Source: Nannocystis bainbridge
GTDB taxonomy: Bacteria > Myxococcota_A > Polyangia > Nannocystales > Nannocystaceae
Length of the DNA stretch: 64,000 bases
Assembly (NCBI RefSeq): GCF_028368995.1
Contig: NZ_JAQNDL010000001.1
Coordinates: 800,001-864,000 of the forward strand
Direction: 5' to 3'
The notes under the pieces are model-generated. The model saw only the letters and a list, made by a program, of their open reading frames with translations, had not been told where the DNA came from and made no database searches. The number at the start of each line of letters is the position of its first letter. Position 1 is the first letter of the stretch. Both the position numbers and the translations under genes were made by a program. Shown here piece after piece: positions 11 through 63,928 of this stretch.

Positions 11-1798
11 ATGACTCGACCGTCCCGCAGCCTCCGGTTCTTCGCCGTCATCGGCGTCCTCTTTACTGCCCTCGTCGCCCTGGCGATGCTGACCGTCTCG
101 CTGCGTTGCGCCTGCGGCGGGCCCGGCGTCCCGGTCAAGACGGTGCTCGAGATCGACTTCGAGCGGCCCTTCCTCGAGCACCAGGCCGCCGACCCGGTCG
201 CGCGCGTGCTCGGCGGCGGCGGGCCCACGGTCGACGACCTCGTCGCCGCGCTCGAGAAGGCCCGCACCGACGACCGCGTGGTCGGCCTGGTCGCCCACGT
301 CGGCGGCGCCGGCTCCGGCTTCGCCCGCACCCAGGAGCTGCGCGACGCGATCGCCGGCTTCCGCGCCAGCGGCAAGTTCGCCGTCGCCTTCTCCGAGACC
401 TTCGGCGAGTTCGGGCCCGGCAACCAGGGCTACTACCTGGCCACCGCCTTCGACGAGATCTGGCTGCAGCCGTCCGGCGACGTCGGCCTCAACGGCCTGA
501 TGATGCAGGGCATGTTCTTCCGCGGCGCGCTCGACAAGCTCGACATCGCGGTCCGCATGGACCACCGCCACGAGTACAAGAACGCGCTCAACCAGTACAC
601 CGAGCGGGCCTTCACCCCGGCTCACAAGGAGGCCAGCCAGGCTGTCCTTTCGAGCATGTTCGATCAGCTCGTCGCCGGCATCGCCGAGGGCCGCAAGCTC
701 GCGCCCGAGGCCGTGCGCGCGCTGGTCGACCGCGGGCCGTTCCTCGGCCCCGAGGCCCACCAGGAGGGCCTGGTCGACAAGCTCGGCTACCGCGACGAGG
801 TCATGGACGCGGTCAAGGCCCGCGCCGGCGACGGCGCCGAGCTGCTGTGGCACGACCGTTACCTCGACCGCGCCGGCCGCCCGTGGACCCGCGGGGCCCG
901 GATCGCCGTGGTCTACGGCCTCGGCCCGGTCCAGCGCGGCGAGAGCAGCTTCGACCCGCTGTTCCGCGAGGCCACCATGGGCTCCGACACCGTCGCCGCG
1001 GCCCTGCGCGCCGCCATCGACGACCGCGAAGTCAAGGCGATCGTGTTCCGCGTCGACAGCCCCGGCGGCTCCTACGTCGCCTCCGACGCGATCTGGCGCG
1101 AGACGGTGCGGGCCAAGCAGGCCGGCAAGCCGATCATCGTCAGCATGGGCAACGTCGCCGGCTCGGGCGGCTACTTCGTCGCCATGCACGCGACCAAGAT
1201 CGTCGCCCAGCCCGGCACCATCACCGGCTCGATCGGCGTGCTCGGCGGCAAGATGATCACGCGTCAGCTGTTCGAGCGCCTCGGCGTCACCTACGACGCC
1301 ATCGGCAGCTCGGCCAACAGCGACTTCTTCAGCGAGACCCACGACTACAGCGCCCACGGCTGGCAGCGCTTCCAGGCCTGGCTCGACCGCGTCTACGTCG
1401 ACTTCACCAGCAAGGTCGCCGAGGGCCGCGGCCTGCCGATCGAGAAGGTCCGCGAGATCGCCAAGGGCCGGATCTGGACCGGCGCCGACGCCAAGCAGCT
1501 CGGCCTCGTCGACGAGCTCGGCGGCTGGCCGGTCGCCCTGCGCCTGGCCCGCGAGTCGGCCGGCCTGGCCGCCGACGCCGACATCGAGCTCAAGGTCTAC
1601 CCGGCGGAGAAGGGCCTGCTCGGCGCCCTCCTCGGCGGCGGCCACGGCGACAACAGCGAGTCGGTCGAGGCCCGCGTCCAGCTCACCATCGGCCTGGCCG
1701 ACGAGCTGCGCCCGGTCGCCGCCGAGCTGCGCGCCCTCGGCCTCGGCCCCGGCGCCCACGGCGTGATGAGCACCCTGCCGGTCGCCGTCGGCGAGTGA
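11..1798 (+). CDS. sppA: Signal peptide peptidase SppA (67-kDa type, protease IV)
   Basis: N-terminal TM; two S49 domains; motifs YYLATAFDEIWLQPSG, RVDSPGGS, SMGNVAGSGGY, TITGSIGV, KGRIWTGADAKQLGLVDELGG. Confidence 0.95.
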   Translation: MTRPSRSLRFFAVIGVLFTALVALAMLTVSLRCACGGPGVPVKTVLEIDFERPFLEHQAADPVARVLGGGGPTVDDLVAALEKARTDDRVVGLVAHVGGAGSGFARTQELRDAIAGFRASGKFAVAFSETFGEFGPGNQGYYLATAFDEIWLQPSGDVGLNGLMMQGMFFRGALDKLDIAVRMDHRHEYKNALNQYTERAFTPAHKEASQAVLSSMFDQLVAGIAEGRKLAPEAVRALVDRGPFLGPEAHQEGLVDKLGYRDEVMDAVKARAGDGAELLWHDRYLDRAGRPWTRGARIAVVYGLGPVQRGESSFDPLFREATMGSDTVAAALRAAIDDREVKAIVFRVDSPGGSYVASDAIWRETVRAKQAGKPIIVSMGNVAGSGGYFVAMHATKIVAQPGTITGSIGVLGGKMITRQLFERLGVTYDAIGSSANSDFFSETHDYSAHGWQRFQAWLDRVYVDFTSKVAEGRGLPIEKVREIAKGRIWTGADAKQLGLVDELGGWPVALRLARESAGLAADADIELKVYPAEKGLLGALLGGGHGDNSESVEARVQLTIGLADELRPVAAELRALGLGPGAHGVMSTLPVAVGE

Positions 1799-1999
1799 CC
1801 TGTCCTTCGGGACACACTTGAAAATCAGGCGTCGCGGCGCGAGGGCTGTCCTGCGGGGCAGCCCTTTCCCGTCGCGCAGGCGAGCCGAGCCGCCTGTCCT
1901 TCGGGACACCTCGCCCGCCCGCTTGCGCCCCCCGCCGCCATGCGTACGGTTCGATCGGCCCGGCGATGCGCCGGACGAACCCACAGGAGGGGAAGACCC

Positions 2000-2254
2000 A
2001 TGTCGGCCGTGCTCGCCTTCACCGCGCTCCTCGGACTGCTCGCCCCCGAATCGCCGCCGCCCGCCGAGCCCGAGCTGCCGAAGCGCGGCCCGCCGCTCGC
2101 CACCGACTGCGCGACCGACTGCGACGCGCGCTGCACCTGGGACGTCTGCCCGCACCCGCTCGGCTGCTTCGCCGCCCTCGACGAGGCCTGCCACACCGCC
2201 TGCCTGACCGAGAAGAAGGCGCAGTGCCCCAGCGAGCTGACGATCCCGCCGTGA
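2000..2254 (+). CDS. Small secreted Cys-rich protein (84 aa)
   Basis: AGGAGG RBS at 1985-1990 before ATG 2000; hydrophobic N-terminus; 8 Cys in the C-terminal half; GC3-rich codons. Confidence 0.7.
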   Translation: MSAVLAFTALLGLLAPESPPPAEPELPKRGPPLATDCATDCDARCTWDVCPHPLGCFAALDEACHTACLTEKKAQCPSELTIPP

Positions 2255-2487
2255 CCAGGCCTGTCCTTTCGGACATATCACAAAAGCGCCGCCCCGAAGG
2301 CCAGGCCCGCCGTGCGCGCGGCGAACATGTCCTTCAGGGCAGCAAATCAAACCGCGCGAATCGACGGACCTGTCCCTTCGAACAGCGACCGACAAAAGAC
2401 CGTCCTGAAGGGTGAGCCCGGCGATGCAGCCCGCTCGCCGGGCCCCCCTTCAGGACGGCTGAGAATCCTCCAGTCCCGCAGGGCAGC

Positions 2488-6913: not shown

Positions 6914-7819
6914 ATGTCGCAAACGCTGACCCACCTGCGCCAGCTCGAGGCCGAGAGCGTCCACATCATCCGCGAGGTCGCGGCCGAGTTCGAGCGGCCG
7001 GTCCTCCTGTTCAGCGGCGGCAAGGACTCGGCCTGCATGCTGCACGTCGCGCGCAAGGCGTTCCACCCCGCGCCGCTGCCGTTCCCGCTGCTTCACATCA
7101 ATACGACCTGGGACTTCCGCGAGCTGCTCGAGTACCGCGATTGGTTCGCCGCCACCCACGGCATGAACCTCATCGTCTACACCAACGAGGCGGCGCTGGC
7201 CGAGGGCATCAACCCGTTCGACACGCCGACCCCCAAGTACAGCGCGGCGATGCAGACGCAGGCGCTGGTGCAGGCGCTGCGCCAGGGCGGCTACGACGCC
7301 GCGTTCGGCGGGGCCCGCCGCGACGAGGAGAAGGCCCGCGCCAAGGAGCGGGTCTACTCGTTCCGCAACAAGCAGATGCAGTGGGACCCGAAGAACCAGC
7401 GGCCCGAGCTCTGGAACACCTACAACGGCAAGGTCAACCCGGGCGAGAGCATCCGCGTGTTCCCGCTGTCGAACTGGACCGAGCTCGACGTGTGGCTGTA
7501 CATCCACCTCGAGCAGATCCCGCTGACCCCGCTCTACTTCGCCAGCGAGCGGCCCTGCATCGAGCGCAACGGGGCCATCATCGCCGTCGACGACGCCCGC
7601 ATGCGGCTGCTGCCCGGCGAGGTCCCGCGCCCGCGCACGGTCCGCTTCCGCACCCTCGGCTGCTACCCGCTGACCGGCGCCGTCGAGAGCCCCGCCGCCA
7701 CGGTGCCCGAGATCATCGAGGAGATGCTGGTCGCCACCCACTCCGAGCGCCAGGGCCGCCTCATCGACTACGACGAGGCCGGCAGCATGGAGCAGAAGAA
7801 GAAAGAGGGCTACTTCTAG
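6914..7819 (+). CDS. cysD: Sulfate adenylyltransferase subunit 2
   Basis: [70 protein letters not shown]. Confidence 0.98.
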
Positions 7820-7883
7820 CCCTGTCCTCCGGGGCATGTCCAAGCGGGCATGCCCCCCGGGACATGCCCTTTCGGACATGTCC
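7818..7883. repeat. 14-bp phased RRRCATGYYY array immediately after the cysD stop
   Basis: Cores CCTG 7821, CATG 7835, 7849, 7863, 7877 (exact 14-bp steps). Confidence 0.9.
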
Positions 7884-7976: not shown

Positions 7977-8570
7977 CTACAACGCCGTGCCGGGCGGTCG
8001 CCGTGCCACCAAGTTGAACACCTCGGTGCCGAGCGCGATCTGCGTATCGATCGCGGTGATCAAGTCTACCGTCGGGATCAAGATGCCCTGCGTTCGAATG
8101 GTGTGGGTGTCGCGATATTTTTGGCGAATGCTGGCCAAGTTGTCGTCGACATAGCCGTAGAGCGCCTGCGCCTGATCGACACCTTCGAAGTAATTCGGTG
8201 ACCTTGACGCCGCATAATATCCATTGTACGGCTCGGGGAACGTGCCGAGGACCGACACTTCCGTGCCGCCCTCGGCGGGCTCGAGGAGCAAAAACAGCTG
8301 CTCACCGCCATTCGTGCACAACAGTGCGTATTTGCCGGCGGTGAGGCGCGCACGGACTTCTTCGAGTTGCAACACGATGTGGCTGAGATAGCCAAAGCTG
8401 TTGATGTCGTCGTTGAAGACGGGCGGCAGCATGTCGAACATCAAGACCGTGCGATCGAGCCGCGGCGTCCACGGCGGCCGGTCTCGCAAAAACGCCGCGA
8501 GCGTCATTGCACTCGGCGGCGGAAATGCATCGCGTTCGTCGTCTGGATCGACCACATAGAGCGTCAACAC
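7977..8570 (-). CDS. Hypothetical protein with atypical (lower-GC) composition, 197 aa
   Basis: GTG 8570 preceded by GGAG; globular-looking sequence (MLTLYVVDPDDERDAF...); visibly more A/T than flanks. Confidence 0.7.
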   Translation of the reverse strand: MLTLYVVDPDDERDAFPPPSAMTLAAFLRDRPPWTPRLDRTVLMFDMLPPVFNDDINSFGYLSHIVLQLEEVRARLTAGKYALLCTNGGEQLFLLLEPAEGGTEVSVLGTFPEPYNGYYAASRSPNYFEGVDQAQALYGYVDDNLASIRQKYRDTHTIRTQGILIPTVDLITAIDTQIALGTEVFNLVARRPPGTAL

Positions 8571-13271: not shown

Positions 13272-13365
13272 GCACATGGCCCAAGAGGCATGTCTTCTCG
13301 GACATGCCCCTTCGAGCATGCCCGATACGACATGCGCTCCTGAGCATGTCCCAAAGGCCATCCCA
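13272..13365. repeat. 14-bp phased RRRCATGYYY array
   Basis: CATG at 13275, 13289, 13303, 13317, 13331, 13345; CATC at 13359. Confidence 0.93.
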
Positions 13366-15659: not shown

Positions 15660-15697
15660 ACACCTGTCCCTTGCGACCTGCCCCTTCGGACAGGCTC
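15660..15697. repeat. Degenerate 14-bp phased array (CCTG/CAGG cores)
   Basis: CCTG 15663, CCTG 15677, CAGG 15691 with purine/pyrimidine flanks. Confidence 0.65.
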
Positions 15698-16309: not shown

Positions 16310-16520
16310 CGCCGCGATCGTCACCCAGCGACTCGCGATCCCGACTGGCGCTTCGCCAGTGGTCGCTCCCCGCGCACGCGCCAGTTCCCCGGACCGCCGC
16401 ATTGCCACCTGTCCTCTGAGACAGCCAGCGCCCGCCATCGCGCCCGGGGCCGCGCCGCTCGCGTGACATCGCCCGCCGAAGCCGCTTGCCTTCGGCGCCC
16501 TCGCCGTCGACCCTGGGGCC

Positions 16521-16940: not shown

Positions 16941-17192
16941 GACCGCGTCCGAAATTCTCGCCCCGAGAGGATGCGCCGCGCGTGTGATCCGGATCGCAGA
17001 ATCGACGCACCGGGCTGCGGCCACGCGCAGGCGCTCCCCCCGCGGCGCGGACGCCCCGCCGACGTCGCATGTCCCGAAGGACATCTCCAGATCGCCGCGA
17101 GCCCGGCCGCAGCCGGTCTCTCCAGCGCTCCGTCGCCCCGGCGCGGCCTGCCATGATTCGCCGGCCGGTGGTTCATTCGTATCTTCGGACGC

Positions 17193-19457: not shown

Positions 19458-21808
19458 TCGAGGCGCAGCCCCAGCGACGGGAAGATCGGCAGCCCGAAGC
19501 CGCCGACCGTGTCGCGGAAATCATAGCTGTACACGTACATCTCGACGTTCTGATGGTTGTACACGTTGAGGATGTCGAGGTACGCGAGGAAGCTGACCCG
19601 CTTGTAGATCCAGCGCCGGTCGACGCGGATGTCGAGCTGATGGAAGGGCGGGAAGCGGGCCGAGTTCTGCAGCCCGCGGATCGGCAGGAAGCCGCCCTCG
19701 TACTCGAGCGAGCCGACCACTGGCGTGTACGGCTGGCCCGACACCAGACGGAACCGGCCGCCGATCTGCCAGCCGCGCCCCAGCTTGATCGACCCCACGA
19801 TCGTCAGGTTGTGCCGCTGGTCGAAGTCCCCCGGGCGGCGCCCGCCCGGATCGCCGTGCTGCTGCGCGAACAGCAGCTCGCTGTGCATCAGCGTGTACGC
19901 CAGCCAGCCGTACAGCCGGCGCGTCAGCGGCTTGCGCAGCAGCAGCTCGAGCCCGTACGTGCGCCCGTACGAGATCCGCGTGGCGAACCCGCCGAGGCTC
20001 ACCGGCGGCACCGCGTTGTCCTGATCGCGATAAAACCCCGTCGCGTCGATCGTCATGTCGGCCGGCAGGTCGTGCGACGCCCCTGCCGACAATTGCAGCG
20101 CCCGGATCACCCGCAGCGTGTTCTGCCCCGGCAGCACCGCGAACGCCGGCTCGAAGTTGGCGAAGTACGCCGGCAGCACCACCTGATTGGTCCCGATCTG
20201 CCCCGAGCTCGGCACGATGCGAGCGTCGACCCCGAACTCCGACTGCCGCGACTGCGAGTAGATGCCCGCGCCGAAGCGCAGGCGCCAGGCGTCGCTCACC
20301 TCCCACAGCCCGTTGATGCGCGGGTCGAGGGCGAACGCCCGCTCCGACCCGAGCGCGAACCCTGACGCGCGGAAGCCCGGCACCAGCAGCAGCGACCCGA
20401 GGCGCAGTCGCCCCGACGAGTACAGCCCGAGCCACGTCTGCTCGCCGCGCGCCGACTGCTCCGGCGGCGGCCAGCTGACCCCGTCGGGCACCTGGCCGCG
20501 GGCCCGGTAGTGATCGACGATCAGGTCCGCGCCGACGATCAGGTCGAACCGCTTCGACATCGAGCGCTGCAGCTCCGCCCGCAGCGACCCGACGTAGTCG
20601 CGGCGGAACTGCTCGCGCTCCTCGACCGGGATCAGCTGGCGGCCGACATCGAAGCGCAGCGCCGGCGACACCATCGTCGACCACGCCCCCATCTTCTTGC
20701 GATACGTGAAGTCGACGCGATGGAAGCTCGAGCGGTAGTCGACCGCGTCCTCGTAGCCGCCCTCCTTCTCGTAGTCGCGGAAGCGGAACCGGATGCGGTC
20801 GCCGGCCCCGAGCACGCGGGCCGAGATCGACGCCCCCTGCTTCAGCGGGAAGTCGACCATCGCCTGGTAATCGTAATAGGTCGGCAGCACCGTCCCGTTC
20901 GAGTCGGTGATCGACATGAACGCGCGCAGGCCCGCGTCCAGGTAGCCGCGCTGGGCCCCGACGATGAACGACCCGCGCTTCCCCAGCGGCCCCTCGACCA
21001 GCGCGCTCGCGGCTCGCAGGTCGACCCCGAGGTGCCCGTGGACCCCGTCGCGTCGCCCGCGGCGCGGCTCGATCACCACCATCCCGCCCGACGCGTTGCC
21101 GTAGCGGCTGTCGAAGTTGCCCGGCACGAAATCGAGGCGCTCGATCACATCACCCGGCACCACGCTCGCCAGCGCCAGCGCGTGGAACGCCCGCGGCACC
21201 GGGTGCTCGCCGACGAACACCCCCGACTGCAGCGGGCTCGCCCCGCGCAGCACCAGCAGCCCCAGCCCGCCCGGCGTGCGCGCCACCCCGGGCAGGTTCT
21301 GCAGCGCCCGCAGCGGATCGCCCTGGCTGCCGGGCATCGTCGCGATCTCCTCGCGCGACAGCGACCGCGCCCCCGCCTCGGGCCGCTTCTCCGTGGCGTC
21401 GCGGACCACCGTGCGATACGGGTTCCACTCGGTCGGCCGCGGGAACAGCTGCCGCTCCGTCGTCGCCCGCGCGAGGATCTCGAGCGTCTGCTCGAGCCGC
21501 TCGAACCCCGGCGTAGCGATCACCAGCCGCAGCTTCCCTGGCGGCAGGTCGACCGCGATCCGCCCCGCCGCGTCGGTCTCGACGATCGTCGTCTCGCCGC
21601 CGGCGCTCACCAGCACCACCCGCGCCTCGGCCAGCGCCGTGCGCAGCCCGGCCGCCCGCACCCGCGCCCGCAGCGTGCCGCAGTCGTCGCGCCCGGCGCA
21701 CGGCTCGCTGACCTGCGGCGGCGGCCGCGGCGGTGGGGCGGCATGCGCCTTCAGACATGCTCCAAAGTACATGACCAGAGCGACATGTCCCTGGCGCCAG
21801 CCGCTCAT
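19451..21808 (-). CDS. TonB-dependent outer-membrane receptor (myxobacterial type)
   Basis: CarboxypepD_reg-like N domain; plug motif MPGSQGDPLRALQNLPGV...LRG...FDSRYGNASGG; barrel end DQRHNL..LDIRVD..NVYN..PSLGLRLDY; ATGA overlap with upstream gene. Confidence 0.92.
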   Translation of the reverse strand: MSGWRQGHVALVMYFGACLKAHAAPPPRPPPQVSEPCAGRDDCGTLRARVRAAGLRTALAEARVVLVSAGGETTIVETDAAGRIAVDLPPGKLRLVIATPGFERLEQTLEILARATTERQLFPRPTEWNPYRTVVRDATEKRPEAGARSLSREEIATMPGSQGDPLRALQNLPGVARTPGGLGLLVLRGASPLQSGVFVGEHPVPRAFHALALASVVPGDVIERLDFVPGNFDSRYGNASGGMVVIEPRRGRRDGVHGHLGVDLRAASALVEGPLGKRGSFIVGAQRGYLDAGLRAFMSITDSNGTVLPTYYDYQAMVDFPLKQGASISARVLGAGDRIRFRFRDYEKEGGYEDAVDYRSSFHRVDFTYRKKMGAWSTMVSPALRFDVGRQLIPVEEREQFRRDYVGSLRAELQRSMSKRFDLIVGADLIVDHYRARGQVPDGVSWPPPEQSARGEQTWLGLYSSGRLRLGSLLLVPGFRASGFALGSERAFALDPRINGLWEVSDAWRLRFGAGIYSQSRQSEFGVDARIVPSSGQIGTNQVVLPAYFANFEPAFAVLPGQNTLRVIRALQLSAGASHDLPADMTIDATGFYRDQDNAVPPVSLGGFATRISYGRTYGLELLLRKPLTRRLYGWLAYTLMHSELLFAQQHGDPGGRRPGDFDQRHNLTIVGSIKLGRGWQIGGRFRLVSGQPYTPVVGSLEYEGGFLPIRGLQNSARFPPFHQLDIRVDRRWIYKRVSFLAYLDILNVYNHQNVEMYVYSYDFRDTVGGFGLPIFPSLGLRLDY
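21739..21790. repeat. 14-bp phased array inside the 5' end of the TonB-receptor CDS
   Basis: CATG at 21742, 21756, 21770, 21784. Confidence 0.85.
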
Positions 21809-24055: not shown

Positions 24056-24121
24056 GGACATGTCCTCTCGACCATGCCCTGAAGGGCATGTCCCATCGAG
24101 CATATCCCAAAGCCCATGTCG
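24056..24121. repeat. 14-bp phased RRRCATGYYY array
   Basis: CATG 24059, 24073, 24087; CATA 24101; CATG 24115. Confidence 0.9.
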
Positions 24122-27326: not shown

Positions 27327-27366
27327 ACATGTCCCTCGGGACATCCCCCGCCCTTCGGACATGTCC
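27325..27366. repeat. RRRCATGYYY cluster after the OMT stop
   Basis: AGACATGTCC (CATG 27328), CATC 27342, GGACATGTCC (CATG 27360). Confidence 0.75.
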
Positions 27367-28735: not shown

Positions 28736-28801
28736 GGACATGCTCCGAGGGACATGTTCGATGGGACCTATCCTTACGAACATTCCCCGAGGGACATGTC
28801 C
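28736..28801. repeat. 14-bp phased array
   Basis: CATG 28739, 28753; CCTA 28767; CATT 28781; CATG 28795. Confidence 0.85.
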
Positions 28802-30548: not shown

Positions 30549-31630
30549 TGGATCTCCAGCCGCAACGGCACCACCAGCTGCGCCTGCGGCCCCGGCAAGA
30601 ACCGCGACTTCCCCAGCTCGTCCGCCACGCAGGCCCGCGCCGCCGCCGGCACCGCCCCATCGCCCGCCCGCACGCTCGCCCGCACGACCTCGCCCCCGCT
30701 CGCCACCACCAGGCTGCCGGTCAGCGCGGTGCGCCGACCGACGCCGATCGTGACATGCCCCAAGAGACAGGCCAATATTCGCGGCTCGGCCATCAGCGCC
30801 CGCGCCTGCCCGGCGATCTTGCGCCGCCGCTCGGCCGCCTCGCCATCGGCCTGCGCCACCGGCACCCACAACGACCCCGCGCCGCTCGCGTCACCGGCCG
30901 CCGCTTGCGAGTCCGCCGGAGCATCCGCCGGACCCGCTTCTGCCGCACGCCACCCGCCGTCACCCGCCGCGGAAACGTCACCAGCCCCCGGAGCTCCGCC
31001 CTCGACGGCACTCGCAGCCTCACCCTCGACAGCTTCAGCGCCGGGCCCCGCAGCCCCCCGCGCCTCGACACCGACCGCCCCCGCAGCGCCGCGCTCCTCG
31101 CCACCGACCGCTCCGCGGCCCTCCGCATCGGGCCCCCGCTCCTCGCCGTCCCGCGGGCCCGCCTCCGCACCTGGCGTTTCGGACATGCGCGAAACGACAT
31201 AAACCATCGCACATGTCCCGACGACCATGGCCCCGAGGACAGCCATTCGAAGGCCCGGGGCGAACGATCGCCGCGCCTGCGAGCCGGCGCGCGCCACCGC
31301 GGCCGAGAACCCTGGCGTTCGGCCCTGCGTCGTCGACCCCGTCGTCCGTGGCGCCTCGCGGATCGTCGACATCCCCGCGTCGCTGTCGCCCGCCGCCGGC
31401 TCGCGCGGAGCTAGATCTCGCGGGGCCCGGAGCATCGCCGCCGCGACCGCCCCTGCATCCGCCTCGCCGTCGCCCGCGCCGACCCCACGCCTCGCCGGAG
31501 CTCTCGCACGCGCGCCCGCCTCGCCCGCCTCATGCGCCGCCGCGCCGTCGTCTTCGTCGGCGCCCGCAACGGGTCCGCGCGTCGTCTCACCGGTCGTCGC
31601 GCTGCTCGTGCTGTCTCGCCACTCGGGCAT
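30545..31630 (-). CDS. Single-TM protein with a TonB-C/AgmX-PglI-like C-terminal domain
   Basis: Low-complexity N-terminus, TM near 31190-31250, Ala/Gly linker, C-terminal ILAC...VVASGGEVVRASV...ACVADELGKSRF; TATATT 7 nt upstream of ATG. Confidence 0.65.
   Translation of the reverse strand: MPEWRDSTSSATTGETTRGPVAGADEDDGAAAHEAGEAGARARAPARRGVGAGDGEADAGAVAAAMLRAPRDLAPREPAAGDSDAGMSTIREAPRTTGSTTQGRTPGFSAAVARAGSQARRSFAPGLRMAVLGAMVVGTCAMVYVVSRMSETPGAEAGPRDGEERGPDAEGRGAVGGEERGAAGAVGVEARGAAGPGAEAVEGEAASAVEGGAPGAGDVSAAGDGGWRAAEAGPADAPADSQAAAGDASGAGSLWVPVAQADGEAAERRRKIAGQARALMAEPRILACLLGHVTIGVGRRTALTGSLVVASGGEVVRASVRAGDGAVPAAARACVADELGKSRFLPGPQAQLVVPLRLEIQ
31181..31246. repeat. 14-bp phased array coinciding with a TM-helix coding segment
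   Basis: CATG 31184, CATA 31198, CATG 31212, CATG 31226, CAGC 31240. Confidence 0.8.
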
Positions 31631-31711: not shown

Positions 31712-33238
31712 ATGCCCGTCGAGCTCCACTTCGATCACGGCACGCTCATCATCCTCGGGGTCCCCGACGGTGACGCGCGGTTGGCTGCGCTCGTGAGCCT
31801 CGACAAGCGCACTGGCACGCATCGGGCACCTGCCCACCGATACCGCGCCATCGTCTCGCATCTCCACAACGCCCACATTCCTTACGTCGACAAAGCTCGC
31901 ATCTACGATCGCCTCGACCTCGCGCTGTCGGGCCCGCTCGATCCCTTCCCGCACCAGCGCGACGCTCTCGCTGCGTGGCGGGCCGCCGGGGGCGTCGGCG
32001 TCGTCGAGCTGCCGACCGGCGCCGGCAAGACCATCCTCGCCGTGCTCGCCATCGTCCACACCGGTCGGCCCGCGCTGATCGTCGTGCCCACCATCGACCT
32101 GATGTTGCAGTGGCAACAGGTCCTGGGCCACTGGCTGCAGCGCCCCATCGGTCTGCTCGGCGGCGGCAACAGCGACGCCCGCGAGATCACCGTCACCACC
32201 TACGACTCGGCCGCTGCCCAGACCGAGTTTCACGGCAACCGCCACGGTCTCCTCGTGTGCGACGAGTGCCACCACCTGCCCGCGCCCGCCTACCGCTTCA
32301 TCGCCCAGGGTTGCCTCGCCCCGTTCCGGCTCGGCCTCACCGCCACCTTCGAGCGCCCCGACGGCCTCCACAGCGTCGCCGCCGACCTCCTCGGCCCCGT
32401 CTGTTATCGGGCCAACATCGACGAGCTCGAGGGCGACTACCTCGCCCCCTACGAGGTCAAGTCACTCGCGGTCGCCCTGAGCGAAGAAGAGCAGGCCCGC
32501 TATGACGAGGCGCGCGCCCTCTACATCGATTTCCTGCGCGGCAGCGGCGTCAGCCTCGATCGCCCTGGCGGCTGGGCCCAGTTCATCGCTGTCTGCCACC
32601 GCAGCGAGGACGGACGCCAGGCGTTCGCCGCCTACCGCGAGCAGAAGCGGATCGCCTTCACCGCCGAGGCCAAGATCGAGGCCATGTGGCGCCTGCTCCT
32701 GCGTCACCGCCGCGACCGGATCCTCGTGTTCACCGAGGACAACGACACCGTCCACCGCCTGTCGCGCCTGTTCCTCCTGCCCGTCATCACCCACCAGACC
32801 CCGCCGAAGGAGCGCGTCTCGCTGCTGGCCCAGTTCGCCTCCGGCGCCCTGCCGGTGCTGCTCACCTCCAAGGTCCTCAACGAAGGCGTCGACGTCCCCG
32901 ACGCCAACGTCGGCATCATCCTCTCCGGCAGCGGCTCGGTCCGCGAGCACGTGCAGCGCCTCGGGCGAATCTTGCGCAAGAAAGAGGGCAAGCGCGCCAC
33001 CCTCTACGAGCTCTGCACCGCCGTCGCCGCCGAGCACGGCGTCAGCGAGCGCCGCCGCCAGCACCGCGCCTACCAGAAGGAGCCGCAGCCCCGCCGCGGC
33101 CCCGCCGTCCTGCGCCCCGGCCCGCTCGACCAGATCCCCGGCGACATGGCCGATGCACCAGGTCCTTCAGAACATGTCTCCGAAGACATGTCCGAAGCGC
33201 CACCCCGTCCCCGCTCGACCGCCGAGGGCGAATGCTGA
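31712..33238 (+). CDS. XPB/Rad25-like superfamily 2 helicase
   Basis: LPTGAGKT, VVPTIDL, DECHHL, LGLTATFER, VLNEGVDVP, QRLGRILR. Confidence 0.93.
   Translation: MPVELHFDHGTLIILGVPDGDARLAALVSLDKRTGTHRAPAHRYRAIVSHLHNAHIPYVDKARIYDRLDLALSGPLDPFPHQRDALAAWRAAGGVGVVELPTGAGKTILAVLAIVHTGRPALIVVPTIDLMLQWQQVLGHWLQRPIGLLGGGNSDAREITVTTYDSAAAQTEFHGNRHGLLVCDECHHLPAPAYRFIAQGCLAPFRLGLTATFERPDGLHSVAADLLGPVCYRANIDELEGDYLAPYEVKSLAVALSEEEQARYDEARALYIDFLRGSGVSLDRPGGWAQFIAVCHRSEDGRQAFAAYREQKRIAFTAEAKIEAMWRLLLRHRRDRILVFTEDNDTVHRLSRLFLLPVITHQTPPKERVSLLAQFASGALPVLLTSKVLNEGVDVPDANVGIILSGSGSVREHVQRLGRILRKKEGKRATLYELCTAVAAEHGVSERRRQHRAYQKEPQPRRGPAVLRPGPLDQIPGDMADAPGPSEHVSEDMSEAPPRPRSTAEGEC
33142..33193. repeat. 14-bp phased array in the helicase C-terminal tail
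   Basis: CATG 33145, CAGG 33159, CATG 33173, CATG 33187. Confidence 0.8.
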
Positions 33239-34678: not shown

Positions 34679-34772
34679 CGCCATGCCCCTCGGGACATGT
34701 TCTAAACGACATGCACATTCGCCCATGTCGTTTAGAACATGTTCAATAGGACATGTTCAATAGGACATGTTC
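34679..34772. repeat. 14-bp phased RRRCATGYYY array, seven units
   Basis: CATG at 34682, 34696, 34710, 34724, 34738, 34752, 34766; last units are exact copies (ACATGTTCAATAGG). Confidence 0.95.
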
Positions 34773-38910: not shown

Positions 38911-39013
38911 CGGCCTGCGCGTCAGGACATGTGCATGAGGACATGGCCTCTTGCACATGTCCTGATGCACATCCCCTGAATCAATAGCCCTACATGTCCC
39001 TCGGGACATTGTC
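38911..39013. repeat. 14-bp phased array between convergent genes
   Basis: CCTG 38914, CATG 38928, 38942, 38956, CATC 38970; second pair CATG 38993, CATT 39007. Confidence 0.88.
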
Positions 39014-39024
39014 GGCACCGCGCC

Positions 39025-40806: not shown

Positions 40807-40844
40807 GGACATGTCTCTCCTGGCATGTCCCAAGAGACATCCGA
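40807..40844. repeat. 14-bp phased array
   Basis: CATG 40810, 40824; CATC 40838. Confidence 0.8.
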
Positions 40845-42280: not shown

Positions 42281-42308
42281 GCCGATCCTGTCCGCCAGGA
42301 CAGACTGC

Positions 42309-45105: not shown

Positions 45106-46308
45106 ATGAGCCTCGCACGTCGTCGCTTCCTCCGTCTCGCCAGCGCCGCCCTCGGCCTCGCCGCCTGTCGTCCCGGCCCCGGTGAACAGACCGCCGCGCC
45201 CCCTTCGGACGGCGCCCCGCCGCCCGCCGATCCGCCGCTGCGCCCCGAGCCTGTCCTGCTCGGCGGGCCCAAGCAGAAGATCCTGATCCTCGGCGGCACC
45301 GCCTTCCTCGGCCCGCAGCTCGTCGAGGCCGCCCAGGCCCGCGGCCACAGCGTCACCCTGTTCAACCGCGGCAAGACCCGGCCCGAGCTGTTCCCCGACG
45401 TCGAGAAGCTGCGCGGCGACCGTGACGGCGACCTCAAGGCGCTGCAGGGCCGCACCTGGGACACCGTCATCGACACCTCCGGCTACGTCCCGCGGATCGT
45501 CAAGGCCTCGGCCGAGCTGCTGGCGCCGAACGTCCGCCAGTACGTGTTCGTCTCCACCATCTCCGTCTACGCCGACACCAGCAAGCTCGGCATCGACGAG
45601 GACGCCCCCGTCGCCGTCGCCCCCGATCCCACGACCGAGGACATCCCGGCCCACTACGGCGCGCTCAAGGCCCTGTGTGAGCAGGCGGCCGAGGCCGCGG
45701 TGCCCGGCCGCACCACCGTCATTCGCCCCGGCCTCATCGTCGGCCCGGGCGACGGCAGCGACCGCTTCACCTACTGGCCGGCGCGCGTGGCCGCCGGCGG
45801 CGAGGTGCTCGCGCCCGGCGATCCGAGCACCCCGGTGCAGTTCATCGATGTCCGCGACCTCGCCGAGTTCATCATCGCCGCGATCGAGGGCGGCCACGTC
45901 GGCGTCTACAACGCCGACGGCGCGCCGCTGCCGATGGGCGAGCTGCTGACCGGCAGCAAGGCCGCGCTGGCCAGCAACGCCGAGTTCACATGGGTCGATC
46001 GTCAGTTCCTGGCCGACAACAAGGTCGAGCCGTGGAGCGACCTGCCGGTGTGGCTCCCGCCCGACCCCGGGTTCGAGGGCGCGGCTACCTTCCGCATCGA
46101 CCGCGCCACCGCGATCGGCCTCAAGTTCCGCCCGCTGGCCGAGACCGTGACCTCTACAGTTGCCTGGTGGAACACCCTGCCCGAGCCGCGCCGGGCCAAG
46201 ATGCGGGCCGGCATCACCCGCGAGCGCGAGGCCCAGCTGCTGGCCGCCTGGCACGCCGCCCACCCGGCCCCGGGCAAGCCCAAGGCCAAGAAGAAGAAAG
46301 CCGCGTAG
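45106..46308 (+). CDS. NAD-dependent epimerase/dehydratase (atypical SDR) with a Tat lipoprotein signal
   Basis: RRRFL...LGLAAC; ILILGGTAFLG, FNRGKT, STISVY, YGALKALCE, RPGLIVGP, QFIDVRDLA. Confidence 0.9.
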   Translation: MSLARRRFLRLASAALGLAACRPGPGEQTAAPPSDGAPPPADPPLRPEPVLLGGPKQKILILGGTAFLGPQLVEAAQARGHSVTLFNRGKTRPELFPDVEKLRGDRDGDLKALQGRTWDTVIDTSGYVPRIVKASAELLAPNVRQYVFVSTISVYADTSKLGIDEDAPVAVAPDPTTEDIPAHYGALKALCEQAAEAAVPGRTTVIRPGLIVGPGDGSDRFTYWPARVAAGGEVLAPGDPSTPVQFIDVRDLAEFIIAAIEGGHVGVYNADGAPLPMGELLTGSKAALASNAEFTWVDRQFLADNKVEPWSDLPVWLPPDPGFEGAATFRIDRATAIGLKFRPLAETVTSTVAWWNTLPEPRRAKMRAGITREREAQLLAAWHAAHPAPGKPKAKKKKAA

Positions 46309-46399
46309 GCTGCCCCTCGGGGCATGCCCGTAGAGACATGACCGAAGGGGCATGTCCATCCGGGCATGTCCATCCGAGCATGCCCTGAGGACCAGCCGC
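46306..46399. repeat. 14-bp phased RRRCATGYYY array between convergent genes
   Basis: GCTG 46309, CATG 46323, 46337, 46351, 46365, 46379, CAGC 46393. Confidence 0.93.
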
Positions 46400-46455
46400 G
46401 TCGCCGCGGCTCACCGCCTCGCGTCGTCGCCGGCGCGAGGCTCACCGCCCTCGCC

Positions 46456-51732: not shown

Positions 51733-51798
51733 GGACATGCCCTCCGGGGCATGTCTCAAGGCGCATGTTCTTCGGGACCTGACCTCCGGGGCATGTCC
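51733..51798. repeat. 14-bp phased array between convergent genes, overlapping a CDS 3' end
   Basis: CATG 51736, 51750, 51764; CCTG 51778; CATG 51792. Confidence 0.9.
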
Positions 51799-53071: not shown

Positions 53072-53845
53072 GTGCTCGCCTCGCCGACCGGCGCCTTTCT
53101 GGCCGACCCGCTGGTCGGACCGACGCTGCTGGTGCTCGCCGGCGTGGTCGCGGGCGTGCTCAACACCCTCGCCGGCGGCGGCTCCTTCGTCATCTTGCCG
53201 ATCCTGATCGGCCTCGGCCTGCCGCCCGGGGTCGCCAACGCCACCAGCCGGATCGGCGTGCTCGCCCACGGCTCGGCCGCGGCGCTCACCTTCGCGCGCG
53301 ACCGCGCCCTGCACACCGGTCTCGTCGCTCGCCTGGCGCCTGCCATGTGCGCCGGGGCCCTGCTCGGCGCCTGGCTGGCGACGCAGACCAGCGACGCCGT
53401 GCTGCGCCCGCTGATCGGCGGGGTCCTTGTCGCGTGGGCGCTGTTCCTGGTCTTTCGGCCAGGTAGCATGACGAAGCCGCCGCCCGAGCCGCGCCCGCCC
53501 GGCACCACCGCCCACGCGCTGGCGCTGCTCATCGGCGTCTACGGCGGCTTCCTGCAGGCCGGCGTCGGTTTTCCGTTGATCGCCCTGTTCGTGTCGCACC
53601 TCGGCCACGACCTGCTGCGCGCCAACGCGGCCAAGGTGGCGCTGGTGTTCGTGTACACGCTGCTGGTGGTGGCCGTGTTCGCGGCCGCGGGCCAGATCGA
53701 CTGGCCGCGCGCGGGGCAGCTGGCGATCGGGATGACCTTCGGCGGCTGGCTGGGCGCGCGCATGCAGATCCGCGCCGGCGCGCCGCTGGTCCGCTGGACG
53801 ATCGTGGTGATGGTGCTGGTCAGCGGCGCTTCCTTGCTGGTCTGA
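53072..53845 (+). CDS. TauE/SafE (TSUP) sulfite exporter family protein
   Basis: GVLNTLAGGGS, ANATSR, GVYGGFLQAGVG, ANAAK; about 8 TMs; TACCGT 6 nt before GTG. Confidence 0.9.
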   Translation: MLASPTGAFLADPLVGPTLLVLAGVVAGVLNTLAGGGSFVILPILIGLGLPPGVANATSRIGVLAHGSAAALTFARDRALHTGLVARLAPAMCAGALLGAWLATQTSDAVLRPLIGGVLVAWALFLVFRPGSMTKPPPEPRPPGTTAHALALLIGVYGGFLQAGVGFPLIALFVSHLGHDLLRANAAKVALVFVYTLLVVAVFAAAGQIDWPRAGQLAIGMTFGGWLGARMQIRAGAPLVRWTIVVMVLVSGASLLV

Positions 53846-54081
53846 AGGACAGGTTGATTCGAACCCAGGTACATGACCCTCGGGACATGTCCTTCTCACC
53901 ACGTCCTTGAAGGACGCCGCGCACGCGAGGCCCGGTGTCAAGGTCCGCGTGCGCCGCAGCAGTGACCGGGAGTCGCATCCACCGCCGTGGGCCGCGACCT
54001 CGGGGGCGGTCCGAGCCGCGAAGCGGTGCTGCGCGGTTCCACGCGGTGCCGTCGGCGGGCGCCTCGGCTATACGTCCGGGC

Positions 54082-54843
54082 ATGGTCCCGCTGGACGCGA
54101 CTCAGGTCCTCGCGCTGCTTGAGCACCTCCCGATCGCGCTGTACGTGATGCGGGACGGCGTGCTGCAGTGGTGCAACGACAAGTTCTTGCGCCTGTGCGA
54201 GTGCTCCCTGGAGGCCGCGCTGGGCCAGAACTTCGTCCGCTTCATCGCCCCCGAGGACCGCGAGTTCGTCGTCGACCGCTACCGCCGGCGGATCTCCGGC
54301 GAGCCCGTGCCCGAGCACTACGAGTTCTCCGCCATCGGCCTCGAGACCGGCAAGCGCACGCCGATCCACATGTCCGTGCACGTCACCCAGATCGCCGGCA
54401 TCCGCTACAGCATCGGCGTCGTCGTCGATCTCACCGCCCAGGCCAGCGTCGCGGCCGGGCTCGCCACCACCGCCGGGGTCGAGCGCAGCTACCCGACCCC
54501 GGTCTTGCGGGTCGCCGCCGGGGTGCTGGTGGTGCCGCTCGTCGGCCACTACCACGCCGCCCGGGTCCAGAGCCTCAACCAGAGCGTGCTGGCCGCGATC
54601 GGCGAGCAGCGGGCCCACGCGCTGATCCTCGACGTCACCGGGGTCGTCGACGCCGACGAGCGCGTCGCCGACTACCTCGGTCGCACCGCCGCGGCCGCTC
54701 GCCTGCTCGGCGCGCAGTGCGTGCTGGCCGGCGTGTCCCCGTCGCTCGCGCAGCTGCTCGTCACTTCCGCGGCCACGCTCACCCACCTGACGACCGCCGC
54801 GACCCTCGAGGACGCGCTGGCCCAGGTGCGTCAGCCCGGCTGA
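54082..54843 (+). CDS. PAS + STAS (RsbR-like) protein
   Basis: PAS: N.KF.......G.NF..FIAPEDR; STAS: TPVLRV..GVLVVPLVG, LILDVTGV, RLLGA.CVLAGVSP. Confidence 0.9.
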   Translation: MVPLDATQVLALLEHLPIALYVMRDGVLQWCNDKFLRLCECSLEAALGQNFVRFIAPEDREFVVDRYRRRISGEPVPEHYEFSAIGLETGKRTPIHMSVHVTQIAGIRYSIGVVVDLTAQASVAAGLATTAGVERSYPTPVLRVAAGVLVVPLVGHYHAARVQSLNQSVLAAIGEQRAHALILDVTGVVDADERVADYLGRTAAAARLLGAQCVLAGVSPSLAQLLVTSAATLTHLTTAATLEDALAQVRQPG

Positions 54844-54934
54844 GACGCGGCCTTTCACCTTCGGGGCGTTTTTATAGGGACATGTCTCGAGAGACATGTC
54901 CTTTCCCCAAGCCCGCGCCCTCCGTGCGTGGCGC

Positions 54935-55888
54935 TCACCCCCGAAGTGGCACCGCGGCCGCCAGTGACGCTCGGGCCGCCGCGCGCTCGCCTGCCCCTGC
55001 GTAAAGCGCATCGCCCAGCGCCTCCGTCCACGCCGGCGTCGAGCCGCAGCACGAGCCGACCAGGTGCAGCCCCGCGTCTCTCGCCAGCGCGGCCACCTCG
55101 GTGGCGAACGCCGCGGCCGGGACCGCGTGCGTCACGAATCGCCCCGGCTCCGCGCGGCCGGTGTGCGGATAGGTCCCGAGGAGCATGTCCGAAGCACCGG
55201 CCGCGGCCACCAGCGCCGGGATCGCCGCCGGCAAGTACGTCAGCTCCGTGCAGTTGATCAGCAGCGCCTGCACCGCGAGCCCGCGCAGCCCGGCCACCAG
55301 CGCTTCGAGCGACTCGCCGGCCAGCAGGCGCCCGTCGGCGCGGCACACCACCGCCAGCCACACCGGCAGCCCGAGCCCTTGCCCGGCCGCCACCGCGGCC
55401 ACCGCCTCGTCGATCCGGCCCATCGTCTCGACCAGCAGCAGGTCGCAGCCGGCCGCCGCCAGCGTCTCGGCCATCACCCGGTGCTCCGGCCCCGCATGGC
55501 TGCCGGGCGACTCGGCCGGGCGGAAGCAGTCCTCGAGCGGGCTCACCGACCCGGCGATCCGCGCCGCGCTCGCGCCGGTCGGGTCCTCCGCCGCGAACTG
55601 CTCGCGCGCCTCGCGGGCCAGCGTCACCGCCCGCCGGGTCAGCGCCTCCGCCTCGTGCGCCCGTCCGCCCGCGGCCAGGTTGCGCGCGTGGGTGCGGAAC
55701 GTGTTCGTCGTGATCACCTGCGCCCCGGCGCGCAGGTAGTCGAGGTGGACCTGCCGCACCACCTCGGGCGCCTCGATCAGCGCGTGCGCCGACCACAGCG
55801 GCGCGTCCATGCGGGCGCCGCGGCGCTCCAGCTCGGTGCCCATCGCCCCGTCGAGCAGGGCCGGCGTCGGCCACGGCTTCACGGACAT
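54935..55888 (-). CDS. Homocysteine S-methyltransferase family protein
   Basis: LLDGAMGTEL, HLDYLRAGA..ITTNTF, LLVET, INCT, GSCCGSTP zinc motif; start could be GTG 55882. Confidence 0.92.
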   Translation of the reverse strand: MSVKPWPTPALLDGAMGTELERRGARMDAPLWSAHALIEAPEVVRQVHLDYLRAGAQVITTNTFRTHARNLAAGGRAHEAEALTRRAVTLAREAREQFAAEDPTGASAARIAGSVSPLEDCFRPAESPGSHAGPEHRVMAETLAAAGCDLLLVETMGRIDEAVAAVAAGQGLGLPVWLAVVCRADGRLLAGESLEALVAGLRGLAVQALLINCTELTYLPAAIPALVAAAGASDMLLGTYPHTGRAEPGRFVTHAVPAAAFATEVAALARDAGLHLVGSCCGSTPAWTEALGDALYAGAGERAAARASLAAAVPLRG

Positions 55889-55976
55889 GCCCTTTCAGAC
55901 ATGTCCCCTCGCGCATGCCCTAAAAGACATGCCCATACAGACATGTCCCCTCGCGCATGCCCGAGAGGACATGTCC
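55883..55976. repeat. 14-bp phased RRRCATGYYY array, seven units, with a 42-bp higher-order duplication
   Basis: CATG at 55886, 55900, 55914, 55928, 55942, 55956, 55970; CAGACATGTCCCCTCGCGCATGCCC at 55896 and 55938. Confidence 0.95.
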
Positions 55977-61909: not shown

Positions 61910-61989
61910 CGACCTGTCTGCGCGGGCATGTCCCCACGGACATGCGCTGCGGGACATGTCCTTTCGAGCATGCTCCAGAGAGCGTGTCC
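61910..61989. repeat. 14-bp phased array after the kinase stop
   Basis: CCTG 61913, CATG 61927, 61941, 61955, 61969, CGTG 61983. Confidence 0.93.
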
Positions 61990-62082: not shown

Positions 62083-63108
62083 TCACTGCCGCAGCAGCCA
62101 CCAGTCGAACCGCTGCTCTTGCGCGCAGGCGCCCGGCTCGAACGACTGGCCGTTATAGGCCTCGAACGTCGCGCTCGCCAGCTTCACCGACGCGTGCGAC
62201 CCCTGCTCGACCTCGACCGGCTCCTCGCCGACGAAGCGCAGGCGGTACTCGACCGCCTTGTCGGGGCAGCAGTCGCCCGGGTCGGCGCAGCCGCACTCGA
62301 CCCCCGCCGGCACCAGCTGGACCGCCAGCTTGGCCGCCGAGATGCTCTCCACCGCCGGGTCGACCGACACCGTGTCGTGGCCGAGGATCACCAGCGGCGC
62401 CTTCTTCCCCGGCGCGTTGCTGTTGTCCGACCACAGCGCCATCTGCTTGAACTGGCACGGCTGCGGCGCCGGCACGTCGATCGCCCCGTGAGCCGACAGG
62501 TACACGCACATCGAGAGCTCGATCTCCTCCGCCGGCTCGGGGGTGGAGAACCCGAATTGCAGCGTCTGCGAGAAGTTGCAGCCGCTGCAGCCCGCCCCCG
62601 GATCGGCCGAACAGGCGACGGCCGTGACGAACCCGCCCTCGACGCTGATGATCCGGTAGTTGCGCCCCGGGAGGTCGAGGCAGGCCTGCGGCACGAGGCC
62701 GCTCCACTGCCGCGCCCGCAGCTCCGCCGGCCCGTACGCGGTCGCACCGCACGCGGGCAGGGCGTCCTCGGTGGTCGTGCTCGTCGAGCTCGAAGTATCG
62801 CCCGAGCTCGTGGTCGTCGAGGTCGTCGTCAGGTCCGGCCCGCTCGTCACCACGTTGCCGCTGGTCGAAGTCGTCGAGGTCGAGGGGCTCGGATCCTCCG
62901 AGGTGCTCGTCTCCTCGCTGGTGGTCGAGTCCGTCGTCGTCGTCGTCGAAGTGTCCGGCCCGTCGACCGTCGCCCCGCTCGCCTGCCCGCCGCTCGAACT
63001 GCCGGGCCCCTCGGTGACCATGAAGGCAGGGTTGTCTTTCCAGCAGCCGGCGAGCACCAGCCCGCATCCCGCCACCACCGCCGCCCGTCGCCCTGCCATG
63101 CCCCGCAT
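62083..63108 (-). CDS. Lipoprotein with Ser/Thr linker and Cys-rich C-terminal domain
   Basis: Lipobox LAGC-WKDNPAF; TATCGT 6 nt upstream of ATG 63108. Confidence 0.85.
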   Translation of the reverse strand: MRGMAGRRAAVVAGCGLVLAGCWKDNPAFMVTEGPGSSSGGQASGATVDGPDTSTTTTTDSTTSEETSTSEDPSPSTSTTSTSGNVVTSGPDLTTTSTTTSSGDTSSSTSTTTEDALPACGATAYGPAELRARQWSGLVPQACLDLPGRNYRIISVEGGFVTAVACSADPGAGCSGCNFSQTLQFGFSTPEPAEEIELSMCVYLSAHGAIDVPAPQPCQFKQMALWSDNSNAPGKKAPLVILGHDTVSVDPAVESISAAKLAVQLVPAGVECGCADPGDCCPDKAVEYRLRFVGEEPVEVEQGSHASVKLASATFEAYNGQSFEPGACAQEQRFDWWLLRQ

Positions 63109-63467
63109 CCTGCGACGATACCTGTCACATTCCGGCAAGGCGCGGGCGTCCTGGAGCCGGACCCCCGCGTGAGCCACCTCTGTGCGCCGCCCGGGGCGTT
63201 TTCGCGGCAAAACCGACGTTCCAGCGCGCTCTGCGTTCGCAAATCCGGGCCACACCGGGCCCGATCCATCCACCGACCCGAGCGCGATGACGAATGCCAC
63301 CGATTTCGCGCGCCGAGAGCTCGGCTCGCCGGCAATGGCGATGCTGTCTCTCGGGACATCCATTGCGATGCCGCATGCGCACCCGGGCCCGACTCGCGGT
63401 CACCGCCGCCCGCGCGCGCACCCCTCGTGCCCCGCGGCGCGCCCGAGCGCACGAGCACCCGGGCGCG

Positions 63468-63610
63468 CCCGCACATCGTGCTCCGCGGCGCTCCTGGACG
63501 CGCGAGCACCTCGTGCTCCGCGGCGCTTCAAGGCCCACGAGCATCCCGATCTCCGCGGCGCTCCCGGGCGTGCGAGCACCTCGGGCCCCGCAGCACTTCC
63601 GGGCCCACGT
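63468..63610. repeat. Four imperfect 35-bp tandem repeats with an internal hairpin
   Basis: GCAC(A/C)TCG / GCATCCCG units at 63471, 63506, 63541, 63576; GAGCACCTCGTGCTC inverted repeat in the best copy. Confidence 0.75.
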
Positions 63611-63928
63611 CGACGCCGCGCACCCTCCCCACGTCAACCCCGCAGCAGCCCGGATCCGCGGCTCTCGCGTGCGCCCGGCCTATGCATCGACATGTCTCTC
63701 AAGACATCTCAAATTCCATACGTCTCCGTCCATTCCTTCGTCGATCACACGCCTGCCCGATCGCCCCAGCCGGGCGGCTGTCGACGCCCCCGCACGTTGC
63801 GAGTGCGCGCATACACGCCCCTCCGCGAGGTCGCCCGACACCGCCCGACCCGACCCCGCAGCCCCCTCCTCCCCGCAATTGATCGCCTCTTGACTGGCGG
63901 CCCCTCATTCACCGCCCAACTCCTGGGC

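Follow-up and report, generated by a model that had tools for sequence, protein, structure and literature searches.

The 64,000-nucleotide stretch of Nannocystis bainbridge DNA analyzed here (C1:800001-864000, "the window") carries short arrays in which CATG cores recur at a strict period of 14 bp, mostly just past the stop codons of genes. Such arrays are found throughout the source genome, an 11.05-Mb assembly of 5 contigs with 72% GC, and they constitute a new, selected family of gene-end repeats that is like the repetitive extragenic palindromic (REP) elements of other bacteria but structurally distinct from them. How the arrays act is something we infer below.

A sequence-only reading of the window had proposed a dispersed family of palindromes phased at 14 bp, and the phasing proved real. 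Among the 256 CATG tetramers of the window, pairs separated by 14 bp occurred 43 times, with further peaks at 28 bp (31), 42 bp (22), and 56 bp (12), while off-phase distances were nearly empty (0 at 13 bp, 1 at 15 bp). The 43 occurrences of CATG-N10-CATG compare with 0.60 ± 0.75 in 100 dinucleotide-preserving shuffles of the window (largest count, 3; 0/100 reached 43). Genome-wide, 3,736 pairs were found at 14 bp, 2,073 at 28 bp, and 1,586 at 42 bp, against a background of ~100 per distance (~290 for multiples of 3), and there was no excess off phase (72 at 13 bp, 262 at 15 bp, 79 at 16 bp). The period is thus fixed, slippage by ±1 bp showing no excess despite heavily substituted spacers. Chaining the cores genome-wide yielded 2,074 arrays, 954 of which had at least 3 cores; by exact core number, 1,120 had 2 cores, 347 had 3, 276 had 4, 210 had 5, 91 had 6, 24 had 7, and 6 had 8 to 16. 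Neither even unit numbers nor multiples of three were favored among array lengths genome-wide, which reduces to arithmetic the earlier remark that three units make 42 bp, or four helical turns. The longest array (C3:1237916-1238185) has 16 exact cores across 20 unit positions, is unusually A+T-rich, and has co-directional genes on both sides. Within the window, 18 arrays have at least 2 exact in-phase CATG cores, two of which (2-core hits at 26647 and 44321) are situated within genes and are probably coincidence. Rfam returned no matches in the window at the gathering threshold.

The arrays of the window are as follows (positions are those of the window).
7818..7883: edge CCTG and 4 CATG; between convergent genes 6914-7819 (+) and 7977-8444 (-), 2 nt past a TAG stop.
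13272..13365: 6 CATG and edge CATC; 9 bp past the stop of 12499-13263 (+).
21739..21790: 4 CATG; downstream of 21805-22848 (-); in register with 5 relatives, 2 of them ungapped.
24056..24121: 4 CATG and internal CATA; 11 bp past the stop of 22984-24045 (+).
28736..28801: CATG, CATG, CCTA, CATT, and CATG in phase; past the stop of 28326-28724 (+).
31181..31232: 3 CATG and internal CATA; the surrounding gap is long and has no called gene.
33142..33193: 3 CATG and internal CAGG; adjoins an 80-bp tandem repeat.
34679..34772: 7 CATG; convergent gap, beginning 2 nt past a TGA stop; contains a recent 14-bp triplication and an inverted duplication.
38911..38976: edge CCTG, 3 CATG, and edge CATC; convergent gap.
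40807..40844: short array, 2 CATG and edge CATC.
46306..46399: edge GCTG, 5 CATG, and edge CAGC; convergent gap, abutting the TAG stop of 45106-46308 (+).
51733..51798: 4 CATG and internal CCTG; convergent gap.
53869..53892: two-core array; past the stop of 53072-53845 (+).
54878..54901: two-core array; past the stop of 54082-54843 (+).
55883..55976: 7 CATG; co-directional (-) genes on both sides; includes a 42-bp (3-unit) duplication.
61910..61989: edge CCTG, 4 CATG, and edge CGTG; convergent gap.

Modules standing outside these arrays were also identified.
1799..1816: single module CCTGTCC-TTCG-GGACACA, immediately past a TGA stop.
2260..2277: single module CCTGTCC-TTTC-GGACATA.
2369..2386: single module CCTGTCC-CTTC-GAACAGC.
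15663..15694: two degenerate modules (CCTG, CCTG, and CAGG in phase).
16408..16425: single module CCTGTCC-TCTG-AGACAGC.
17068..17085: single module CATGTCC-CGAA-GGACATC.
27328..27345: single module CATGTCC-CTCG-GGACATC.
63691..63708: single module CATGTCT-CTCA-AGACATC.

The ten best examples named by the sequence-only reading all lie at the correct coordinates, but its unit counts include degenerate cores: CCTG at 7821, 38914, and 61913, CATC at 13359 and 38970, CATA at 24101, GCTG at 46309, CAGC at 46393, and CGTG at 61983, while the array at 28739, counted as five, has three exact CATG plus CCTA and CATT. Of the loci it had listed as pairs or triplets, those at 40810, 53872, and 54881 each hold 2 CATG in phase, whereas those at 1799, 2260, 2369, 15663, 16408, 17068, 27328, 40070, and 63691 are not CATG pairs but single spacer-centered modules (CCTGTCC-N4-GGACAx).

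Averaging the units gave GGACATGTCC followed by four A+T-richer bases. The genome-wide profile was G (.71), G (.70), A (.59), CATG, T (.55), C (.76), C (.75), and the spacers were ~55% A+T in a genome of 72% GC. At 1,908 array edges, the outermost flanking unit retained TG (.49/.69) and YCC (.56/.57) and did not retain RRR-CA (R, purine; Y, pyrimidine); sequence outside the arrays reached background composition within one unit, with no conserved termini past the module. Because the edge units keep TG/YCC but lose RRR-CA, the 14-bp module is better described as a spacer-centered 5-N4-5 inverted repeat, TGTCC-N4-GGACA, abutting copies of which create CA/TG. The functional unit appears to be this one and not the CATG-centered palindrome first described. 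In its full form, (C)[A/C]TG-TCC-N4-GGA-CA[T/G](G), the module occurs either solitary or abutting head to tail. Among 3,805 strict noncoding modules, the base 5' of TG was A in 71%, C in 25%, and G in 3% (genome, 36% G), and the base 3' of CA was T in 73% and G in 22%; isolated modules read CCTGTCC-N4-GGACAGG. Neighboring units shared at least 8 of 10 inter-core bases in 81 of 1,510 cases (26 in the control), and the most frequent spacer tetramer made up 3% of 2,733. Given such diverse spacers, the array units are not recent copies of one another. No GNRA or UUCG tetraloop preference was seen in the spacers, none of which dominated and whose counts were strand-symmetric. Long-range spacer complementarity was weak (inverted matches at lag 2, 32 versus 14), as was any extension of the palindrome at isolated CATG units.

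As the sequence-only reading had noted, arrays begin near stop codons and often lie between convergent genes. Of the 954 arrays with at least 3 cores, 488 occupied convergent gaps, 334 tandem gaps, and 35 divergent gaps, and the other 97 fell within called coding sequence; over the whole genome, convergent gaps numbered 1,511, tandem gaps 4,495, and divergent gaps 1,520. At least 2 phased cores were held by 669 of 1,558 convergent gaps (43%) and by 12 to 13% of tandem gaps, a 3.3-fold enrichment of convergent over tandem gaps. Arrays in tandem gaps were found at a median of 21 bp past the upstream stop and 212 bp ahead of the next start, and promoter regions were avoided. The 35 divergent-gap arrays, most of which lie in long gaps where genes were probably left uncalled, gave no lead to an autoregulated reader gene. 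Array density was alike on all contigs, which leaves a proposed role in segregation or at ori/ter without support. The genes flanking the arrays of the window are unrelated and of housekeeping or signaling type (PAPS reductase, SprT-like, DUF790, epimerase, M36 peptidase, and Ser/Thr kinase-STAND). In positions 30001 to 50000 of the window, 12 terminator-like sites were counted against 4.9 expected by chance, most of them inside coding sequence as crudely called; none of these canonical hairpin-plus-T-run sites coincided with any of the 7 arrays there, all being at least 200 bp away. Classical intrinsic terminators thus appear rare at the gene ends of this region, the arrays themselves are rejected as canonical intrinsic terminators, and, with the terminator-like sites lying apart from the arrays, something else may therefore end transcripts.

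Comparison with relatives revealed what is conserved in an array. Syntenic regions of five array-rich relatives were ~88% identical, and alignments broke at the arrays. At 51736 and 21742, matching units stood in register in 5 and 6 genomes, respectively, with freely differing spacers, and all five units of 51733..51798, including the degenerate CCTG, were kept in 4 relatives. Across 610 kb compared with two relatives, at least 2 phased cores occupied the orthologous site in 61 of 67 array-by-relative pairs (at least 3 cores in 51), and register relative to the unique flank was kept in 30 of the 61, where chance would give about 1 in 7 for either flank. In an aligner-free subset of 13 equal-length pairs (52 units, compared base by base), identity was.75 to.85 in the core,.83/.87 in the outer arm, and.42 to.62 in the spacers, and an intact CATG was kept in 38 of the 52 units. 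The aligned set of 231 unit pairs, in which the aligner favors matching cores, gave.78 to.97 for the core and.42 to.56 for the spacers. These comparisons show purifying selection that keeps core, arms, and exact spacing while the 4-nt spacers drift, which bears out across species the earlier observation that phase and core are kept as spacers diverge.

Unit number was less stable. The locus at 34682 has 7 units in the source genome versus 1 to 2 in relatives; that at 55886 has 0, 2, 2, 4, and 7 cores across genomes, with a 42-bp duplication in the source genome and, in an array-poor relative, no array and two genes only 7 nt apart; and in two array-poor relatives the gene end orthologous to that of the 61913 array has no array. 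Such loci show that arrays lengthen and shorten in steps of complete units. At 55886, the initial core extends into the start region of the downstream (-) gene; in relatives, CATG occurs there as a start-codon context, and the array may have been seeded by an ATG start with a C in front of it.

The arrays are confined to a narrow group of organisms. A loose 4-core pattern occurred 869 times in the source genome, 409 to 527 times in five large genomes of the same genus, 1 to 13 times in five smaller, fragmented genomes of that genus, and not at all in 30 relatives outside it (14 from other genera in its family, 16 from its class). A strict 4-core purine/pyrimidine pattern occurred 118 times in the source genome and in none of 400 other genomes of the phylum. 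In a named one-genome-per-species collection, a strict 5-core pattern matched 37 stretches, 34 of them in Nannocystis; the remaining three (in Pseudomonas, Alteromonas, and a verrucomicrobial metagenome-assembled genome) were exact 14-bp minisatellites, so that Nannocystis was the sole source of the diverged-unit form among named genomes. In two sister genera, scanned over 200 kb and 41 kb, respectively, no tetramer of whatever sequence recurred in phase. Because the array-poor relatives are without arrays at the 2 orthologous loci inspected, the family has expanded in one clade and been maintained there since.

We consider it possible, if short of probable, that the gene-end arrays are read as double-stranded DNA by a dimeric protein and so serve as marks or insulators where transcription units end. 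A two-fold symmetric, sequence-specific protein would bind as one dimer per 14-bp module, the dimers would pack side by side along the array, and the bound array would end or insulate the transcription unit in the manner of a roadblock-type terminator; alternatively, it might hold back the supercoils that build up between convergent genes or give a topoisomerase a site at which to act on them. Transcribed arrays would in addition fold into hairpins at 3' ends, with weaker RNA-level selection on the arms. The tolerated variants of the core point in this direction. Among 286 internal variant cores, CCTG (53), CAGG (43), CATT (51), AATG (38), CATA (20), and TATG (18) were common, whereas the wobble-compatible CGTG (3) and CACG (5) totaled 8, and the counts were symmetric also after orientation by transcription. 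At A/T sites elsewhere, transitions numbered 4,394 versus 1,894 A>C/T>G changes, A-to-G being 2.3 times as frequent as A-to-C. Rigid spacing, amino/keto (A-or-C, G-or-T) degeneracy, strand symmetry, and independent half-sites together fit a two-fold symmetric reader of double-stranded DNA, and the sequence evidence favors base-specific reading of this kind. The sequence-only claim of a double-stranded site read by a protein is thereby supported in part, by the absence of slippage and the strand-symmetric variants, but no binding protein was found and RNA effects may contribute.

Several observations weigh against this proposal. No reader protein was identified, the divergent-gap arrays having yielded no candidate, and a roadblock 2 to 15 bp past the stop could not work without admitting RNA polymerase to the first units. 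The gene contexts come from a crude gene caller based on GC content at third codon positions, which called 82% of the genome coding and missed genes. Arrays fold stably as RNA from the consensus alone (about -25 kcal/mol per 4 to 5 units), and the sense RNA was 3.0 ± 0.84 kcal/mol more stable than the antisense (n = 135). In tandem gaps, the sense-strand ratio of GCATGT to ACATGC was 3.35:1 where the sense strand was leading and 0.92:1 where it was lagging, and on the leading strand in convergent gaps it was 1.34; the difference between leading and lagging ratios separates the two effects and implies a ~1.8-fold transcription effect on the arms on top of a replication effect. The spacers had a strong replication GC skew (±0.22 to 0.24, purine-rich on the leading strand, three-fold the genome skew) and almost no transcription effect, while the arms shifted by about.08. 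A sense-strand arm bias is not predicted by a purely double-stranded reader, and the weak transcription-oriented G/U bias suggests some RNA-level effect. Finally, genome-wide scoring of the inner units of arrays with at least 4 cores showed that long arrays favor the asymmetric ACATGC/GCATGT over the palindromic ACATGT/GCATGC (in 5- to 6-core arrays, for example, 285 and 226 observed versus 233 and 172 expected); in two-core arrays, ACATGT was dominant.

A stronger form of the dimeric-reader proposal, which we regard as doubtful, would have the large-genome Nannocystis clade possess a dedicated protein that polymerizes on ~2,000 gene-end arrays, its filaments ending or insulating units or managing supercoils. 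Such a filament system would be of recent enough origin for array-poor relatives to expose the reader gene.

A contrasting explanation, rather unlikely in our judgment, is that the arrays are REP-like RNA elements forming 3' untranslated region hairpins (CAUGYYY-N4-RRRCAUG, with a 7-bp stem and a 4-nt loop) or fold-backs that terminate transcription bidirectionally or block 3' exonucleases. The position of arrays directly past stops, with their convergent enrichment, would suit this, as would the stable predicted folds, the sense-strand advantage just described, and the fact that canonical terminators (12 in 20 kb) never occurred at arrays. On the sense strand, the purine half of the arms is enriched in G and the pyrimidine half in U, a bias that is missing from the spacers and would be expected from tolerance of G-U but not of A-C. 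A preprint (bioRxiv 10.64898/2026.03.23.713779) moreover reports E. coli REP325 to be a dual terminator and stabilizer. Yet compensatory covariation, the expected signature of such hairpins, was not seen. Watson-Crick frequencies across the spacer were.44/.60/.57 versus.42/.57/.57 when shuffled, in line with the earlier remark that arms across a spacer often fail to match, and within-unit pairing next to the core fell under the shuffle value (z = -10). In the 43 segments of the window, standard pairs filled 83.3% of cells versus 84.2% when shuffled (443 of 500 shuffles equaled or exceeded the observed value), and the fifth pair, adjoining the core, was unpaired in 22 of 41 segments. Real arrays folded no better than arrays rebuilt from random units of the family (-0.45 ± 0.45 kcal/mol, n = 250). 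The pairing-friendly CGUG was the rarest core variant, whereas the mismatch-making CCUG and CAGG were common and conserved, and at array edges opposite T, C (a C-U mismatch) outnumbered G (a G-U wobble) 452 to 74. Loop length is invariant, though hairpins need no fixed loop, and structure alone does not account for one sequence at ~2,000 loci. RNA and double-stranded DNA levels may both operate together.

It is improbable that the arrays are selfish or neutral repeats, whether like miniature inverted-repeat transposable elements (MITEs) or REPINs or as products of 14-bp slippage, that persist at harmless gene 3' ends with no host function. Unit number does vary among close relatives, as at 34682 and 55886; recent 14-bp and 42-bp duplications exist; the array-poor lineages of the genus point to gain or expansion in one clade; and promoter avoidance is typical of tolerated insertions. 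However, the Y1 transposase of REP-associated elements (RAYT, PF01797) had no match in the source genome (assembly 90.5% complete), as against matches in 6 of the 14 control genomes. Self-comparison by megablast gave 81 clusters of repeats of at least 400 bp, the most repeated with 10 hits, and no high-copy insertion sequence. Nor were there conserved termini or target duplications past the module, although target-site duplications were not surveyed systematically. The diversity of spacers speaks against recent copying, conservation of core, arms, and spacing next to near-saturated spacers is not produced by slippage or drift, and the core variant spectrum is opposite to the mutational spectrum. 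MITEs were rejected in view of flanks at background within one unit, few long repeats, and no parent insertion sequence. A recently amplified minisatellite was rejected as well: the window arrays are too diverged, since Tandem Repeats Finder reports only 3 of them, and few adjacent units are closely alike. Both rejections accord with the diverged units that had led the sequence-only reading to the same view. Excision-footprint, template-switch, and RNA-polymerase pause-motif ideas were supported by no test. By analogy with SeqA on GATC clusters, a CATG methyltransferase might mark the cores for a reader of clustered (hemi)methylated sites, and the 4-bp palindromic core, typical of methyltransferase targets, and the strand-symmetric constraints would suit it, but a CATG enzyme would not methylate the tolerated CCTG/CAGG and AATG/CATT and the arms and 5-N4-5 geometry are constrained as strongly as the core, which makes this explanation very improbable.

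Some features of the surroundings were also recorded. Longer intergenic tandem repeats adjoin or neighbor arrays at 33217-33480, 34809-34990, and 63412-63609, with units of 80 bp (3.3 copies, 95% matches), 58 bp (3.1 copies), and 25 to 51 bp; the region orthologous to 34780-35060 has, in two relatives, a different tandem repeat of ~84 bp in several copies. GC skew in the genome is very strong (about ±0.08 per 50 kb), gene-strand bias is almost nil, and a sign change of the skew near C3:1.5 Mb may mark an origin or terminus. Stretches of 12 to 21 kb at contig ends recur in the assembly (C1 4515656-4536530, C2 3021502-3033751, and C5 707284-720618) and probably represent either overlaps left in the assembly or large duplications.

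The ends of transcription units in very GC-rich bacteria without canonical terminators are poorly understood, and the function of REP-type repeats has been debated for four decades. The Nannocystis arrays offer a clean case, with a short module, thousands of independent diverged copies, and selection on both sequence and spacing, and close relatives with 25 to 60 times fewer arrays permit comparison. If a dedicated reader exists, the arrays would represent a new kind of chromosome or transcription organizer and a compact, portable insulator part for engineering myxobacteria, important producers of natural products. Should the reader form filaments, the result would be a protein-based gene-end system, programmed by sequence, of which bacteria offer no described counterpart; action as RNA would instead make the arrays a new architecture for termination or stabilization. 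No description of these Nannocystis arrays was found in a literature whose coverage left out most subscription journals and supplements.

Among known systems, REPs have been proposed to bind gyrase and nucleoid proteins such as IHF, and phased arrays bound by polymerizing dimers include the heptads of omega proteins, the ParR-parC iterons, Fur hexamer arrays, and the metboxes of MetJ. The closest likeness is to REPs and the bacterial interspersed mosaic elements (BIMEs) of enterobacteria and pseudomonads, which, like the arrays, comprise hundreds to thousands of short palindromic units in a narrow taxon, are extragenic, single or clustered, and enriched at gene 3' ends and in convergent gaps. 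Proposed roles for REPs, as given in the same preprint (bioRxiv 10.64898/2026.03.23.713779), are termination and mRNA stabilization. The REP unit, however, is ~35 nt, whereas the module here is 14 bp, abuts its neighbors in strict phase, and has free 4-nt spacers; the hairpin covariation and RAYT/Y1 transposase of REPs and REPINs are lacking, and the core variants of the arrays point instead to base-specific double-stranded reading. Bidirectional intrinsic terminators share with the arrays their convergent gaps, symmetric sequence, and hairpin potential on both strands but differ in that the arrays are without flanking A/U tracts and use one shared sequence instead of locus-specific stems. The decamer consensus RRRCATGYYY is that of the p53 response element, RRRCWWGYYY, with the outer C/G most conserved, yet the unit here is spacer-centered and the resemblance is formal only; p53 (PF00870) and NDT80 (PF05224) domains had no matches at E ≤ 1 in the source genome, the PF05224 control having matched nowhere. 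Iteron and operator arrays have in common with those of Nannocystis a fixed period, rigid spacing, variable length, and no requirement for RNA structure. They bind one dimer per repeat, as would be the case for each module here, but stand one or a few to a replicon, at promoters or partition sites with the cognate gene nearby, whereas the Nannocystis arrays number ~2,000 and lie at gene 3' ends.

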